A stretch of 64,000 nucleotides of DNA from a virus. Its lineage: Duplodnaviria; Heunggongvirae; Uroviricota; Caudoviricetes. This document shows positions 42,274 through 51,312 of the stretch, piece by piece; position 1 is the first letter of the stretch; each line of letters starts with the position of its first letter. Both the position numbers and the translations under genes were made by a program. Below the pieces are notes generated by a model. The model was not told where the DNA came from and ran no database searches. It worked only from the letters and a program-made list of their open reading frames with translations. The stretch lies in the IMG/VR virus record IMGVR_UViG_3300031555_002904; one strand, written 5' to 3'.

Positions 42274-42714
42274 ATGGAAGCTTTATTAGCAGAATGGGGT
42301 TTAGAGATCTTATTTGCTTTGATTAGTGCAGCCGTTATGGGCTGGGCCAAGTGGCATGGTGATAAACTGAAAAAAGAATTACAAAGTGCCAAAGATTTGG
42401 CTGCTGAAAAAGAAAAGAAAGAGATTGAAAACTCTATTGAAATCAAATTAGAACCAATTTATGAAGAGCTGGAAGAAATCAGAAAGCATATTCGAGATGC
42501 AAAGAATATTGAGCAATCTCATATGAATCTAATTATTGCCTCTTATCGTTTCCGTTTAGTTCAGTTATGTAAAGGATTCTTGGCTCAAGGATATATTACA
42601 ATGGAGCAAAGAACTCAATTAGATGAATTCTATAAATTATATACCGGATTAGGTGGCAACGGATAGGCAAAGATTTATTATGAACAATGTATTCAATTAC
42701 CTCCCAGACCCTAA
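42274..42714 (+). CDS. Membrane-anchored phage protein with an LGGNG motif, 146 aa (code 15); possibly lysis-associated
   Basis: N-terminal TM helix, coiled coil, Y..LGGNG*AKIYY..C..LP C-terminus. Confidence 0.65.
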
Positions 42715-44675: not shown

Positions 44676-45257
44676 ATGGGATGGTCTATTGTAAGCACCG
44701 AAGGTCACGGTTGTAATTTTAGTTATTGGGTTCCCGCAGCCGGTTCTACCACTCGTGGACAAATGATTGTCTATTACAATGACACTGGCAAGCCAGTAAA
44801 AATTAATAGTTGTTTTATGTATTTTAGTACTGGTAGCGGCACATATGGAGGTATGACAGGTAATGGTAATACATATTATATCACAGCTTCCATTACGGAT
44901 AGTACAGGTAAAACTGTTAGCTCTAGTGAAATTACAATAAATAATATTAGTTATAATTCCACTTATGACAATATGAAAAAATGTGAATGGACTTTTAATG
45001 ATATTGTTTTAGTTAATCCAGGAGCAACTGTATATGTACAAATGACATTTAGAATACCCAATTGGAGTACTGCTGTTTTGTGCGCCGGTACTTGGGGAAC
45101 TTCATATTATGGAGGATCAGTGAGCGACGCAGGAGCTGTACGTATTTGGAATGGTTCTTCTTGGGTTAGTGCAATTCCCTATATTTGGAATGGTTCATCA
45201 TGGATATAGGCAATGCCCTATGTTTGGAATGGCTCATCGTGGGTGCCTTCATCATAA
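44676..45257 (+). CDS. Small adhesin-like protein with three C-terminal Trp repeats, 193 aa (code 15)
   Basis: Ends RIWNGSSWVSAIP/YIWNGSSWI*AMP/YVWNGSSWVPSS; TAA 45255. Confidence 0.75.
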
Positions 45258-45263
45258 AAAAAA

Positions 45264-45302
45264 TAAAGGCTAGTTATGAAATTAATCATAACTAGCCTTT
45301 TT
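45264..45302. terminator. Bidirectional terminator
   Basis: AAAGGCTAGTTATGA-aattaa-TCATAACTAGCCTTT. Confidence 0.85.
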
Positions 45303-45614
45303 TTATTTCATTTTGATTCCATTATAAATTGCATTCGTTTCTAACAATATATCCTCTCCATACTATGACATCAATTCTGCCACTAACTCTTCCTCGCTAT
45401 AGGACAAGTCAATCATGTAACTATACATAAATGCGTGTACGATTTCGTGACATAAGACCTCTTTTAAAAGTTGAGGGGAAAGGGTCTTATCAACGCAAAT
45501 AGTCTGAGTGACTTTATCACAGACTCCAAGAGCATGAGTTTTCCACGGAGTTAGTAACAAAGGATGTGCTGGCGAGACCAATCGGACTCGCCAGACAACT
45601 CCATTGATAATCAT
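45303..45614 (-). CDS. HExxH zincin-like metallopeptidase, 103 aa (code 15); cassette gene 6
   Basis: LCHEIVHAF...EE; reads through TAG 45363 to TAA 45303. Confidence 0.75.
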
Positions 45615-46249
45615 TTCATCTGACCGATCTTAGAAGCCAGTGCGGTAATTTTCTTCTCAAGATACTGCTTTTCTTCTGGAGAGGCATCTGCAATCATTTC
45701 AGTAATGTCTTGAGACAACTCCTGCATATACTTCTCCAATTCACGTAATTGAGAAGCTTTATCTCGTTTCATTTCCTTGGCTTCCATATACATTCTGCGA
45801 CTATTGTAACTGCGGCCTTCGCGCTCGTCGCGCCACATAGGCCCGTCATAGTAGTTACGACCATTGGAACTATTAGTACCACTCATGTCGCCAGAATCAG
45901 CGTAATTCTGGGTACCACCCATATGATTCTGACCACCATCGGCATAGAAAGTGCCATCTGCGCGACGATTACGACCGCCATCCGCATACATTGCAGGATA
46001 GCCACCACTATAATACATGCGATCATCCTCAGGCTTCTGATGATGGTCGCCATTTTTCATTTTCATTTCTTTGCCTTGATGATTCATCGCTTCAGTAACA
46101 GTGCAATAGTAGATAGCTTCTTCCAAATCCTTAATCATATCAATAGCTTCTCCAAGCTCTTCGGTATCTACTTCGCTAAGGTTACATAATTGATTTTCAA
46201 CTACACAAATTAATGAATCTTTCATCCATTTTAATTTTTCATGGCTCAT
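45611..46249 (-). CDS. Helical protein with a central G/Y/R/D-rich disordered linker; cassette gene 5
   Basis: EELGEAIDMIKDL N-terminal helices, RRADGTF, C-terminal ELEKYMQELSQDITEMI helices. Confidence 0.75.
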   Translation of the reverse strand: MSHEKLKWMKDSLICVVENQLCNLSEVDTEELGEAIDMIKDLEEAIYYCTVTEAMNHQGKEMKMKNGDHHQKPEDDRMYYSGGYPAMYADGGRNRRADGTFYADGGQNHMGGTQNYADSGDMSGTNSSNGRNYYDGPMWRDEREGRSYNSRRMYMEAKEMKRDKASQLRELEKYMQELSQDITEMIADASPEEKQYLEKKITALASKIGQMK

Positions 46250-46263
46250 ACAGTCACCCCTCC

Positions 46264-46686
46264 TTATGCTTCACGAGTAACAATTAAGTTCGCATTTTGA
46301 ACAACTACTGCGTCAGTAGATGTATTCTTCACGCTAACACTAACGCAACATCCGCGAGGAACGTCAATAAATACACTTGACTTCACATTGAAGAACTGTT
46401 CAACTGCGGCGGGGGTAATAATCATAGTAGTAGCAGGAACGGGCTCACCATCAATAGCAATAGCCAAAGAGATTGGGCCGACAGTTCCATCTGTGGGAAC
46501 AGCAATATTGCCGCCAAAAGTCACCATAAAACGAGCGCGGCACTGGGAGTTGGTGACTCCGCGAAGAGTCACCAAACCAGAATCGTCTCTATGACCTATG
46601 GACATATTGCCACAAATAACGGTGTCTGTGAAATAAACATTTTGATTTGCTGGGACAGTCTATACAGCATTAGCAATAATTTCCAT
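46264..46686 (-). CDS. Beta-rich protein resembling the BclA C-terminal (C1q/TNF-like) domain, 140 aa (code 15); cassette gene 4
   Basis: ATG 46686 (AAGGAGG), one TAG; alternating beta strands, ends NANLIVTREA. Confidence 0.6.
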
Positions 46687-46702
46687 AAATCAGACCTCCT
46701 TA

Positions 46703-47410
46703 TCAGAATGCGCCGCAGCCACCATAATAGGTATTGCAGCAGTAGGGATTAGGTACAGTATAGGCGGGAACGGGGCATGGACGCAATTCGTTTACTAAGT
46801 AAGCGTTCTGTGCGGCCTGAGATGCGGCAAAGCGCAAGCCCTGATTCTCTGCCTGCAAGGTAGCGATCTTATCATTAGTCAAGAAGTCTAAGATAGAGCG
46901 TACGCCTGCATTGTTGGCATCAATAATATCACGAGTGCTATCAGCAATAGCGCGACGAGTGTCGCAAGCTTGAGTTGCTAAATTGTAATTGGTGTCTGCG
47001 AAGCCACGCTCAATTGCGCGACCGGTCTCGCAGCAACAATCACTAATCTGATGAGCAATAGTATTGAAACCATTCTGCATATTATAGCCAAGAGTGCAAA
47101 CAGCAGTATCTACGCCATGGAAGCCACTCATAATAGAGTTATTCAAAGCGTAAGTGCTATCTGCCAAGCCATAAGTCTGATTATCCAATTTGGAAATCAA
47201 AGTCTGCTGATCGACAGCTGCTCTTACATCAGCCTGGGTTGCGGGAACGCCTTCTACGCCTCCGCCAAAGCCGCCGAATCCACCGCGGCCCCAACCAGCA
47301 AATAAGAACAATAAAATGATCCACCAGCCATTATCACCGAACATACCGTCACCATTGCGGCCAGTTACAGCGGCGATGTCAGATAAATTGTAACCTTTTC
47401 CATTAAACAT
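46703..47410 (-). CDS. Gly-rich membrane-segment / coiled-coil / Cys-rich protein; cassette gene 3
   Basis: GWWIILLFLFAGWGRGGFGGFGGG, ISDCCCE, PCPVPAY.VPNPYCC. Confidence 0.75.
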   Translation of the reverse strand: MFNGKGYNLSDIAAVTGRNGDGMFGDNGWWIILLFLFAGWGRGGFGGFGGGVEGVPATQADVRAAVDQQTLISKLDNQTYGLADSTYALNNSIMSGFHGVDTAVCTLGYNMQNGFNTIAHQISDCCCETGRAIERGFADTNYNLATQACDTRRAIADSTRDIIDANNAGVRSILDFLTNDKIATLQAENQGLRFAASQAAQNAYLVNELRPCPVPAYTVPNPYCCNTYYGGCGAF

Positions 47411-47430
47411 AATTTTTTCCTCCTTAAATT

Positions 47431-47685
47431 TTAGTTGTTGTAGCCTAATGCACGTTTGAAGGCTTCAAATTCAGAGTCGAAATCCTAACCGCCCTATTGA
47501 GCGTAAATATTGCGAACTACTTTCTCTAGTTCCGCAGTGCGACCCTGTTGAGCTAAACTCAGGAGATTTCTTCCGAGGGGATTATTGTAGGCCTGACCCT
47601 AAAGCACGGATAACATTAACTATTGAGGGTTTTTACCAGACCTAATCATTGAAATTAAAACATTGGGATCTACTGGATACATCAT
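47431..47685 (-). CDS. Small helical protein, 84 aa (code 15; absent from the track); cassette gene 2
   Basis: AAGGAGG RBS, 4 TAG, TAA 47431. Confidence 0.7.
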
Positions 47686-47695
47686 TCATACCTCC

Positions 47696-48139
47696 TTAGA
47701 ATGATAAAAGTTCTACTTTCTCTTTTTGCGGGGCGGGTGCGGCCGGCTCGGTTGGCTTCTGGGGCAATAATTGCGCCAGGACCCGCTCAAACTCTTCTCG
47801 CGTAACAAATTTCTCAACGGATGGAACTAAGCTGCTTTTTTCTTCTTCAACGGGCATTTCCCTTAATTCATATACATATAGTGAAGCAGTGCCATCCATA
47901 TTTATTTGTTTTGTGTAGATTCGTTTGTTCGCCAAATCTGGGAAGTAGAATACAGAACCATCGAAATCAATAGAGGTTGCACGGGCCTCTTCCAATGAGC
48001 TAACTAATCTACCTTTTAAATTTACTTGCGGCGGCGCCTGCCGTAAGTAATTCGGTACTTGGTACATTGGTTGCTATTGGGTGATTTGCTGGGTCTGTTG
48101 CACGGGTTGCTGTGGATAATAATTATAGTTTGAATACAT
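47696..48139 (-). CDS. Protein with a Q/P/Y-rich N-terminus, 147 aa (code 15); cassette gene 1
   Basis: ATG 48139 after GGAGAGGAG; YYPQQPVQQTQQITQ*QP. Confidence 0.75.
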
Positions 48140-48313
48140 ATGTAAGGTCTCCTCTCCATACAAAAAATTTTCTTATCCATCCCCTCATAGTATTATGAAA
48201 ATTAGGATGGGAAAATTACCCTCTTTTGTCCAAACGTCCACCACTTCGGGACCTTAAGAGGTTTTTTAGGAAACCTAAAAAATATGTTTTTAGGTATTTT
48301 TAATTAAAACAAA

Positions 48314-48348
48314 AAAAGCGAGATAGATAAAATATCTATCTCGCTTTA
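48314..48348. terminator. Intrinsic terminator
   Basis: AAAGCGAGATAGAT-aaa-ATATCTATCTCGCTTT-type stem directly after the 48358 stop. Confidence 0.75.
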
Positions 48349-50694: not shown

Positions 50695-51312
50695 TTAATC
50701 AAGAATAGTCCAATAGACAGCCTTAACAGGATCTTCTAATCTTTTTAAACGATCATCTAAATCTTGATATTGACTAGCATTTAATAAATAGCTACTATCC
50801 ATTTTTTTAACTTCCATACCTGCTAATATTTCACTACGTGCGGGAATGGTATTTAAACTATAAGTTAAAACTTTTTTAGTTCCACCATTTTCTTCATCAG
50901 GAACTTCTCCAACTTTATAAAATTGAATTGCAAATTCAACTTTACCTTTTTTTACTGCTACATTAGCATCTAAACACCAAGGAAGTAACATTTTTTGTTC
51001 ATTGGCATATGTATAGATATCATAAAAAGGTACATGATAAATACGAGAAATCCCTGCTGTAAGATTAGTATATGTTACTACACAGCATGTAGTAGCTAAG
51101 TCCATATAATCAACAAATCTATCAACAATAAAATATATAGTTTCAGATTTATGGTCTTTTTCTACAGATAAGAATTTTGGTGCGTCCACCTCACGAGTGG
51201 ACGCATCAATATTATAAATATTTTCTGCAGAGGGTAGCATGGCATAGATTGGAGGATTAGCATTATTTACTAAATGAAGATTGCTATTGTACTCTTCATA
51301 GGTAGTAATCAT
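50695..51312 (-). CDS. Baseplate upper-protein (BppU-like) domain protein
   Basis: FIVDRFVDYMDL, LLPW, G.VEFAIQFY pattern shared with the N-terminus of the adjacent gene. Confidence 0.6.
   Translation of the reverse strand: MITTYEEYNSNLHLVNNANPPIYAMLPSAENIYNIDASTREVDAPKFLSVEKDHKSETIYFIVDRFVDYMDLATTCCVVTYTNLTAGISRIYHVPFYDIYTYANEQKMLLPWCLDANVAVKKGKVEFAIQFYKVGEVPDEENGGTKKVLTYSLNTIPARSEILAGMEVKKMDSSYLLNASQYQDLDDRLKRLEDPVKAVYWTILD

Follow-up and report, generated by a model that had tools for sequence, protein, structure and literature searches.

A widespread, terminator-bounded six-gene cassette of gut phages that may act at the membrane late in infection

The described systems closest to the locus examined here belong to phage lysis, phage accessory genes, small metallopeptidases and the surfaces of bacterial spores. 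The T4 holin T, a class III holin whose antiholins RI and RIII are linked to lysis inhibition, combines a short cytoplasmic head, one transmembrane segment and a large Cys-bearing domain, with small regulators binding both ends. Insertions such as lambda lom/bor and those of the HK97 type are phage morons, for which the slot after the lysis genes is a classic position. In recoded phages, the reading of TAG as Gln is a late state. The metallopeptidase MJ1213 is a protein that we take to be the minigluzincin projannalysin. On spores, F-BclA forms the tip of F-ENA appendages, in a study that makes no mention of phages (PMC12357932). Here, we analyze a gene cassette in a 64,000-nucleotide stretch of caudoviricete phage DNA (IMG/VR record IMGVR_UViG_3300031555_002904; henceforth termed the window), compare it with related loci and known systems, and weigh what it may do.

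Six co-oriented, tightly packed genes, p1 to p6, occupy positions 45303-48139 of the minus strand when open reading frames are read with TAG as Gln (Table 1), with gaps between consecutive genes of 10, 20, 16, 14 and -4 nt. They form one terminator-bounded operon, the lower hairpin of which is common to the cassette and the convergent gene 44676-45257. At 0.433, the GC content of the cassette exceeds that of the two flanking fibre genes (0.375 and 0.352) and of the window (0.379). A scan of the leader strand for sigma-70-like promoters, including position 48232, passed no site, and the leader has no second copy within the window that would mark it as a repeated promoter unit of the phage; it may contain a phage-specific late promoter. 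A preliminary description made from the letters had proposed a six-gene operon between an upstream and a bidirectional downstream terminator, GC-richer than the adjoining fibres and encoding a Q/P/Y-rich protein, a small protein with four TAG codons, a helical protein with a disordered G/Y/R linker and an HExxH peptidase. The packed minus-strand genes and both strong terminators bear this layout out, the GC difference holds, and the four proteins correspond to p1, p2, p5 and p6, the last as a putative minimal zincin judged by its sequence. Of the features proposed there, the late-type promoter at 48232 alone stays putative.

Table 1. Cassette genes and bordering elements in the window, from the upper to the lower edge.
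Feature	Position	Strand	Description
Upstream intrinsic terminator	48315..48347	-	15-bp stem, 3-nt loop, T-run; ends upstream fibre gene, upper cassette edge
Leader	48140..48314	-	176-nt; GGAGAGGAG ribosome-binding site at 48149-48157
p1	47696-48139	-	147 aa; ATG start behind GGAGAGGAG ribosome-binding site; 1 in-frame TAG
p2	47431-47685	-	84 aa, Gln-rich; 4 in-frame TAGs
p3	46703-47410	-	235 aa; no TAG; 9 Cys
p4	46264-46686	-	140-aa beta protein; 1 in-frame TAG
p5	45611-46249	-	212 aa; low-complexity linker flanked by helical N- and C-terminal parts
p6	45303-45614	-	103 aa; HExxH; 1 in-frame TAG; start overlaps p5 end by 4 nt
Bidirectional terminator	45265..45300	.	Perfect 15-bp stem, T-runs on both strands; lower cassette edge

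The recoding on which these frames depend is real, because the flanking fibre genes turn into continuous open reading frames with 7 and 9 in-frame TAGs once TAG is read as Gln. The cassette contains seven such codons in total, one of which, in p2, pairs with a Gln of a TAG-free homologue in the alignment, and recoded relatives carry 6-16 TAGs within their cassette genes. Since TAG acts as a stop in a standard-code cell, the in-frame codons tie translation to lytic growth: the cassette is translated only after the phage reads TAG as Gln.

p3 was present in all 113 related loci, matches phrog_16490 at 1.3e-47 and belongs to a family of 3,137 clusters at 50% identity, almost all of them unnamed. 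Its short N-terminus is followed by a Gly-flanked hydrophobic helix at about residues 29-40 and by a helical region carrying a CCC motif at 125-127 that is invariant in the alignment; further motifs are AENQ..ASQ.AQN, CP.PAY and a Cys/Gly tail. Every p3 lineage has one strongly hydrophobic Trp/Ile/Leu/Phe core, some 12-15 residues long and bordered by Gly runs; in p3 itself the 19-residue hydropathy maximum is only 1.33 and the flanking charge is ambiguous for topology. Searches against Pfam holin families gave no match at E values up to 1, and the PHROG matches were all to families of unknown function. The monomer model consists of one long helix (residues 68-209) at a mean pLDDT of 53.6, too poor for fold searches. 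When three copies of p3 residues 100-235 were modelled with three copies of p4 (L082 pair), the complex scored 0.00, which speaks neither for nor against binding, and the p3 tail type showed no co-variation with a p4 or p4b partner (Fisher p = 0.30).

The slot behind p3 holds either p4 or, in 52 of the 113 loci, an unrelated Cys-rich protein, p4b. p4 (phrog_20016 at 1.5e-55; family HMM 8.1e-63) has a conserved CC at 113-114 and no Gly-X-Y repeats; about 25 residues precede its beta domain, and a terminal position on a stalk is plausible for the protein. PF18573 (BclA_C, C1q/TNF-like) was matched by 4 of 31 scanned proteins from this slot, the best at E 7.9e-8, whereas the window's own p4 matched nothing in Pfam at E up to 1, so that the tie to BclA_C runs through relatives; the earlier label of a BclA-C-like protein thus suits the family and finds no Pfam match in the window's copy.

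At the upstream end of the operon, p1 (phrog_21718 at 9.5e-10; family HMM 2.7e-24; 110 of 113 loci) joins a Q/P/Y-rich N-terminus to a small core of one helix and three strands and a C-terminal helix. The core of a p1 homologue was predicted with a pLDDT above 90. It has no solved relative (best PDB Foldseek E 0.11; best VIA Z 3.9), and its strong structural matches are all uncharacterised phage or prophage proteins. p2, found in 108 of 113 loci (family HMM 5.3e-8) and probably helical, had no match in Pfam or PHROG. The linker of p5, residues 56-160, is rich in G, M, D, R, Y and N; this protein has more than 5,000 homologues and occurs in 80 loci, and an Atlas lead to DUF7841 at 0.85 was not confirmed by hhalign. 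p6 was present in 41 of the 113 loci. Across ten sequences of its family H56, E57, H60, E75 and E76 are invariant, corresponding to an HExxH motif and a downstream acidic pair. It matches phrog_1233 at 4.7e-13 and phrog_87, labelled 'metallo-protease', at 1e-3, while its Pfam matches are weak and below cut-off (DUF6782, 18.9 bits against 27; M78, 16.3 bits against 22; SprT, also weak). PDB matches span E 0.05-0.08, with the 110-aa MJ1213 as the best, itself weak at E 0.05.

The order p1, p2, p3, p4 or p4b, p5, p6 is collinear in 112 of the 113 loci, with p1-p2-p3-(p4 or p4b) as a fixed core and p5 and p6 as frequent additions. We therefore consider it very probable that the cassette is one instance of a very widespread accessory module, self-contained, dispensable and borne by thousands of gut and rumen phages; the recurrence in gut Firmicutes phages suggested in the preliminary description is far exceeded, and the synteny it proposed to check is kept. 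Most carriers are phages of Clostridia, and Butyrivibrio phage Ceridwen carries p1-p2-p3-p4 plus p5. Dispensability follows from sibling C. perfringens phages with and without the cassette: XP41-N3 has p1-p4b, where phiCP39-O has an unrelated 1.4 kb without any HMM match, between flanks that are 90-97% identical. Within the window's own phage lineage the cassette is never missing and always closes the structural block; relatives sought through the neighbouring gene 50695-51312 were not found.

Beyond Firmicutes, p3 homologues were identified in one cultured phage of Bacteroides uniformis, two viruses of Methanomassiliicoccales and over a dozen crAss-like genomes. Sharing of the whole module across phyla was considered and dropped, as profiles of Firmicutes p1, p4, p5 and p6 compared with Bacteroides-phage neighbours at probabilities under 1%, with an exception of about 15% around the HExxH motif. 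Judged by sequence profiles, p3 alone is demonstrably common to Firmicutes, Bacteroides and archaeal viruses. No standard capsid, tail, lysis or replication family was found among the cassette proteins in Pfam or PHROGs, in agreement with the preliminary description, and a pooled PHROG scan returned families of unknown function only, save the peptidase labels of p6. PADLOC, with E up to 0.01, matched none of its families to eight cassette proteins chosen as representatives.

Where recognisable genes surround the cassette, lysis genes are frequent. In Suoliviridae crAss-like genomes the p3-type gene is preceded by a holin gene and by a LysB-like gene; cr1_1 and cr273_1 also encode an endolysin 2-3 kb downstream of it. 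Across 34 non-redundant loci of the Firmicutes type, the two closest large open reading frames upstream were compared, and cell-wall hydrolase domains led the recognisable families with about 10-12 matches; the cassettes of Ceridwen, Dulem virus 33 and XP41-N3 come after the lysis genes. Because the cassette lies in or beside lysis modules, we tentatively favour a membrane-seated complex that would assist or time lysis and egress as an optional extra, without being the holin itself. All six proteins would be made in the cytoplasm late in infection, the location being proposed because p1, p2, p4, p5 and p6 have no export signal. p3 would enter the cytoplasmic membrane via its Gly-flanked hydrophobic helix, and its cysteines (CCC and the Cys tail) together with its short N-terminus would seat the BclA-like or Cys-rich partner, p1, p2 and p5. 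p6 may trim or release a component, and the complex would work at the membrane as the infection cycle closes. The presence of p3 in viruses whose hosts are monoderm, diderm or archaeal suggests a shared target, such as the cytoplasmic membrane. Against a lysis role, carrier phages encode separate holins and endolysins, which led us to reject the cassette as sole holin, and we know of no precedent in lysis systems for a putative jelly roll of BclA type, a G/R/Y-rich linker protein or a zincin-like protein. As the post-lysis slot is also a moron slot, adjacency may reflect just a permissive site, and other loci have the cassette beside integrases, within head modules or between fibres. The lack of a Pfam holin match, the low hydropathy maximum and the ambiguous topology of p3 count against this role too, as does the finding that p3 alone is demonstrably shared with Bacteroides and archaeal viruses. 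A defence system was rejected in view of the PADLOC result and TAG-gated translation.

The main rival to a lysis and egress helper is a virion appendage or decoration, a reading that we hold to be unlikely and that places the proteins on the particle. p3 would form an oligomeric helical stalk and p4 or p4b a distal knob, comparable by analogy with the BclA-type domains that tip spore fibres, while p1, p2, p5 and p6 would act as assembly factors; the hydrophobic N-terminus of p3 would be buried in the particle or later enter a target membrane, and the conserved cysteines would be reduced in the anoxic gut and cross-linked once in air. Several genomic settings fit an appendage: the cassette lies between tail fibres in the window, the head module of Dulem virus 35 contains it, a minor-capsid gene precedes it in two non-redundant loci, p3 adjoins tail proteins in each of the two archaeal viruses, and crAss-like genomes encode Mtd-type tail proteins a few genes upstream of p3. 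The C-terminal coil of a Bacteroides-phage neighbour also matches phrog_473, 'virion structural protein', at 1.4e-8. Absence of export signals is expected of cytoplasmic assembly, late translation given the TAG codons agrees with an appendage, and independence from the host domain suits a function facing the environment. In favour, too, all 50 INPHARED records with a p3 match are viruses that either were sampled from gut, faeces or sewage or infect strictly anaerobic gut hosts. However, the genome position varies widely and the cassette is dispensable, no virion family was matched in Pfam or PHROGs, and a strongly hydrophobic, Gly-flanked helix would be unusual in a soluble fibre. Our literature search found no paper describing the cassette and no virion proteome of a carrier phage or listing cassette proteins.

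That the cassette acts instead from the prophage, as a lysogenic-conversion moron whose membrane-anchored complex would alter the host surface or block superinfecting phages, appears improbable. Its own terminators and its GC content unlike the surroundings are typical enough for such a reading, and in temperate phages it adjoins the integrase or excisionase or comes after the lysis genes. At an Anaerotruncus prophage locus, contigs from RNA libraries cover the cassette at 95-99% identity in four runs of one study, but these runs were picked with the cassette sequence, and the contigs give neither timing nor level and leave uncovered flanks uninterpretable. The in-frame TAGs of the window phage and about a dozen recoded relatives would halt translation in the standard code, the cassette keeps one place throughout the window's lineage, closing the structural block, PADLOC gave no matches, and the presumed partners have no export signals. 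Far less probable still, and close to negligible, is the function put forward in the preliminary description, a spore-coat or exosporium modification or shell that would aid phage persistence in sporulating hosts. The reach of the p4 family to BclA_C, the Cys-rich, Gly/Tyr-rich and Gln-rich compositions reminiscent of spore-coat proteins and the prevalence of Clostridia phages among carriers had made it attractive. The host range, which the preliminary description had itself named as a test, contradicts it, as carriers are not confined to phages of spore-formers: the cassette occurs in a phage of Butyrivibrio fibrisolvens, to our knowledge a non-sporulating species, and p3 in phages of Bacteroides, crAss-like phages and viruses of methanogenic Methanomassiliicoccales. 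In addition, the cassette has no collagen-like stalk, the six proteins and 31 p4 or p4b proteins matched none of the ExsFA/BxpB, ExsY/CotY, DUF3992 and DUF4183 families nor any ENA family (Pfam, E up to 1), and the TAG codons bind translation to lytic growth.

Because p3 crosses into crAss-like phages and archaeal viruses, its function appears independent of any particular cell envelope. The most ambitious reading, in our view unlikely, is a previously undescribed, host-domain-independent phage machine, in which a membrane-inserting helical protein with an invariant CCC and interchangeable Cys-rich knobs, linked through thiols or metal, would control when or how completely release takes place or would harden particles leaving the anoxic gut. 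Horizontal transfer would spread it among viruses that infect Clostridia, Bacteroidota and methanogenic archaea. Among phages of the dominant gut Firmicutes, the gene order of the module is fixed; finding its role would annotate thousands of 'hypothetical' genes together and could expose an unrecognised step of late infection or particle survival in gut phages. It can be tested in cultured carrier phages of C. perfringens, Butyrivibrio and, for p3, Bacteroides uniformis, and with natural siblings that have no cassette.

No described system matches the cassette, and each of the closest shares a part of it. The T4 holin T is analogous to p3 and its cassette in predicted layout, small accompanying proteins, late expression and frequent adjacency to lysis genes; unlike T, p3 has no Pfam holin match and its carriers have separate holins, and in place of RI and RIII the partners are a putative jelly roll, a low-complexity protein and a zincin-like protein. 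Spanins, whether i-spanin/o-spanin pairs or unimolecular, resemble p3 in its N-terminal hydrophobic anchor, its Cys-bearing helical domain and its position near holin and endolysin genes in crAss-like phages. The p3 family, however, extends to single-membrane Clostridia phages and archaeal viruses, and no cassette member has a lipobox or lipoprotein signal, so that a spanin was rejected given monoderm and archaeal hosts and no lipoprotein partner; cr116_1 is read as having its own lipoprotein-plus-transmembrane spanin upstream of its holin. Like the minimal zincins (MJ1213, SprT, ImmA/IrrE M78 and DUF6782), p6 is small, at about 105 aa, and combines an invariant HExxH with a pair of acidic residues further downstream, yet it stays below all family thresholds, and unlike ImmA/ImmR it has no paired HTH repressor. 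With the BclA C-terminal domain p4 shares a small, beta-rich build and PF18573 matches in some family members, but p4 stands alone, without collagen-like repeats or an exosporium leader, half of the cassettes have the Cys-rich p4b instead, and the hosts include non-sporulating organisms. Morons share its autonomy, bounding terminators, odd GC content, variable sites and presence or absence between siblings; the cassette differs from them in having six genes in strictly conserved order, fixed throughout the window's lineage, with in-frame TAGs and translated late, not from the prophage state.

Allowing TAG raised long-ORF coverage of the window from 46.6 to 62.9 kb and restored the fragmented fibre genes to ORFs of 578 and 733 amino acids with 7 and 9 in-frame TAGs; the source is a large gut phage in which TAG is a sense codon. 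With TAG read as glutamine, the cassette resolves into six co-oriented minus-strand genes, p1–p6, spaced by gaps of 10, 20, 16, 14 and −4 nt. These genes carry seven in-frame TAGs, four of them within the 84-codon p2, where one aligns to a glutamine of a TAG-free homologue. GC content is 0.433 in the cassette versus 0.375 and 0.352 in the two fibres. The preliminary description of a GC-richer six-gene operon, bounded by two terminators and with four TAGs in its second gene, thus stands. Its late-type promoter was not recovered, as a sigma-70-like promoter scan of the 176-nt leader, a sequence that occurs once in the window, returned no passing site.

Features of the cassette and its surroundings, genes under the TAG=Q reading, with occurrence among 113 compared loci
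Feature	Coordinates	Strand	Loci (of 113)	Remark
Strong terminator	48347-48315	-		3' of upstream fibre gene
p1	47696-48139	-	110	
p2	47431-47685	-	108	
p3	46703-47410	-	113	
p4	46264-46686	-	59	
p4b			52	unrelated Cys-rich alternative in the p4 slot
p5	45611-46249	-	80	
p6	45303-45614	-	41	
Bidirectional hairpin	45265-45300	both		perfect 15 bp, 3' of p6
193-aa gene	44676-45257	+		convergent, inserted after p6, extra relative to ten relatives
Second fibre, 578 aa	42776-44512	-		7 TAGs, inserted after cassette, extra relative to ten relatives
146-aa TM/coiled-coil gene	42274-42714	+		adjoins cassette in 11 loci of the lineage

Using p3 as bait, we collected 73 loci from bacterial genomes and 80 viral contigs, then searched 161 loci with one profile HMM per member; 113 of them had sufficient flanking DNA for counting presence and order. 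Gene order was collinear in all but one (112/113). The six genes are a module, and the previously suggested recurrence of similar clusters in gut Firmicutes phages is borne out. At least 8,000 relatives of p3 and more than 5,000 of p5 exist among 5.8 billion proteins searched, nearly all without a name and, among the matches listed, none with a Pfam domain. A full profile search with p3 yielded 3,137 clusters (50% identity); each of the top 150 is a stand-alone protein, 127-340 aa in length.

Several variations on this arrangement were observed. The substitute p4b (L011:6985-7374, L028:6800-7231 and 50 further loci) has ~135 aa and ~12 cysteines, matches no Pfam family and starts with a CxxxCxxC motif, a spacing typical of 4Fe-4S binding sites. 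Just 5' of p1, at least 21 loci (L057:4632-5018 and 20 others) encode a conserved ~129-aa protein (cluster 10) without a Pfam match, which may be a seventh, optional module member and whose GDC motif may mark a papain-like cysteine peptidase. In Dulem virus 33, an opposite-strand endonuclease gene lies between p2 and p3 (L007:7073-7624), with all members retained.

The N-terminus of p1 is rich in Q/P/Y; a homologue is predicted to fold into a small helix-plus-three-strand core (pLDDT >90) followed by a C-terminal helix, for which structure comparison found no solved relative. The small, Gln-rich p2 had no match in the databases searched. In alignments, the core protein p3 has a short N-terminus, a Trp/Ile/Leu/Phe core bracketed by glycine runs, an invariant CCC triplet, AENQ..ASQ.AQN and CP.PAY motifs and a Cys/Gly tail; modelled singly, it forms one long helix at low confidence. 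We assigned p4 to phrog_20016. Its proposed likeness to BclA-C holds for relatives, as 4 of 31 scanned +1-slot proteins reach Pfam BclA_C (best E 7.9e-8), but not for the window's own p4, which has no Pfam match. Helical ends flank a G/R/Y/D/M-rich linker in p5. The HExxH noted in the 103-aa p6 is invariant across the family alignment, together with a downstream EE pair, and all peptidase matches are sub-threshold. No N-terminal export signal was found in p1, p2, p4, p5 or p6. PADLOC gave no match, PHROGs gave families of unknown function only, apart from peptidase labels for p6, and the literature searched does not mention the cassette.

The cassette site differs among phage groups: in Ceridwen, Dulem virus 33 and XP41-N3 it follows the lysis genes, in Dulem virus 35 it lies within the head module, at some loci it adjoins a Tn916-type integrase and excisionase, and in the window it lies between fibres. 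Within the window's lineage (p3 50-85% identical, dUTPase 34-80%) the site is constant: the cassette occupies the distal end of the structural block and is convergent with a TM/coiled-coil gene, RuvC and dUTPase, which in ten relatives directly follow p6. The 146-aa product, in which a TM helix at the N-terminus is combined with a coiled coil, may serve as another holin-like protein or as a lysis regulator; a homologue has no Pfam match. The C. perfringens phage XP41-N3 carries p1-p4b, while its sibling phiCP39-O, with flanks 90-97% identical, has an unrelated 1.4 kb in its place that no cassette HMM matches. The cassette is dispensable.

Carriers are mostly phages or prophages of Clostridia. 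The proposed spore-coat or exosporium role nevertheless fails the host-range test set beforehand, because Butyrivibrio phage Ceridwen carries p1-p2-p3-p4 and p5, and homologues of p3 are encoded by a cultured Bacteroides uniformis phage, by over 12 crAss-like genomes (crAss001 is absent from the matches) and by two viruses assigned to Methanomassiliicoccales. Beside p3, Bacteroides phages encode Cys-containing beta, beta-plus-coil, R/D/Y-rich and HExxH proteins. We initially considered these a diverged whole module and dropped this reading since profile comparisons with the cassette families did not support homology; by sequence, cross-phylum sharing is demonstrable for p3 only. A diversity-generating retroelement, its reverse transcriptase beside a tail protein (Mtd-type in crAss records), lies a few genes 5' of the p3-type gene in both crAss-like phages and a Methanomassiliicoccales virus (L164, vir215; L167 and L168, cr52_1 and cr53_1).

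As main rival to a role in lysis, a virion stalk-and-knob appendage would fit the adjoining fibre and tail genes and the environment-wide distribution; we consider it unlikely. Lysogenic conversion appears more doubtful still: integrase-proximal sites favour it, but it conflicts with the TAG codons. At an Anaerotruncus prophage locus, the cassette is covered by contigs from RNA libraries (four runs, all of a single study), which places it in those libraries but says nothing on timing. One matching contig turns to unlike sequence near position 8100 of L028; a near-identical cassette in that sample therefore has a different downstream context.

Lysis is the strongest contextual signal. Among crAss-like genomes, those of Suoliviridae have the p3-type gene 3' of a holin and a LysB-like gene, with an endolysin 2-3 kb downstream in cr1_1 and cr273_1, and among 34 non-redundant loci sampled, cell-wall hydrolases are the commonest recognisable family in the two nearest large upstream ORFs. 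Just 5' of the cr116_1 holin, a 135-aa protein recorded as hypothetical (L002:3340-3747) has a lipoprotein signal, with Cys as the last residue of the lipobox, and a C-terminal TM helix, the layout of a unimolecular spanin. Tentatively, we favour a complex seated in the membrane by the hydrophobic helix of p3 that would assist or time lysis or egress, given the lysis-gene context, the helix itself, translation that is TAG-gated and late, and a host range suggestive of a universal target. Against this lysis role, carrier phages have their own holins, the partner set has to our knowledge no precedent in lysis systems, and the slot after lysis genes is also the usual moron slot.
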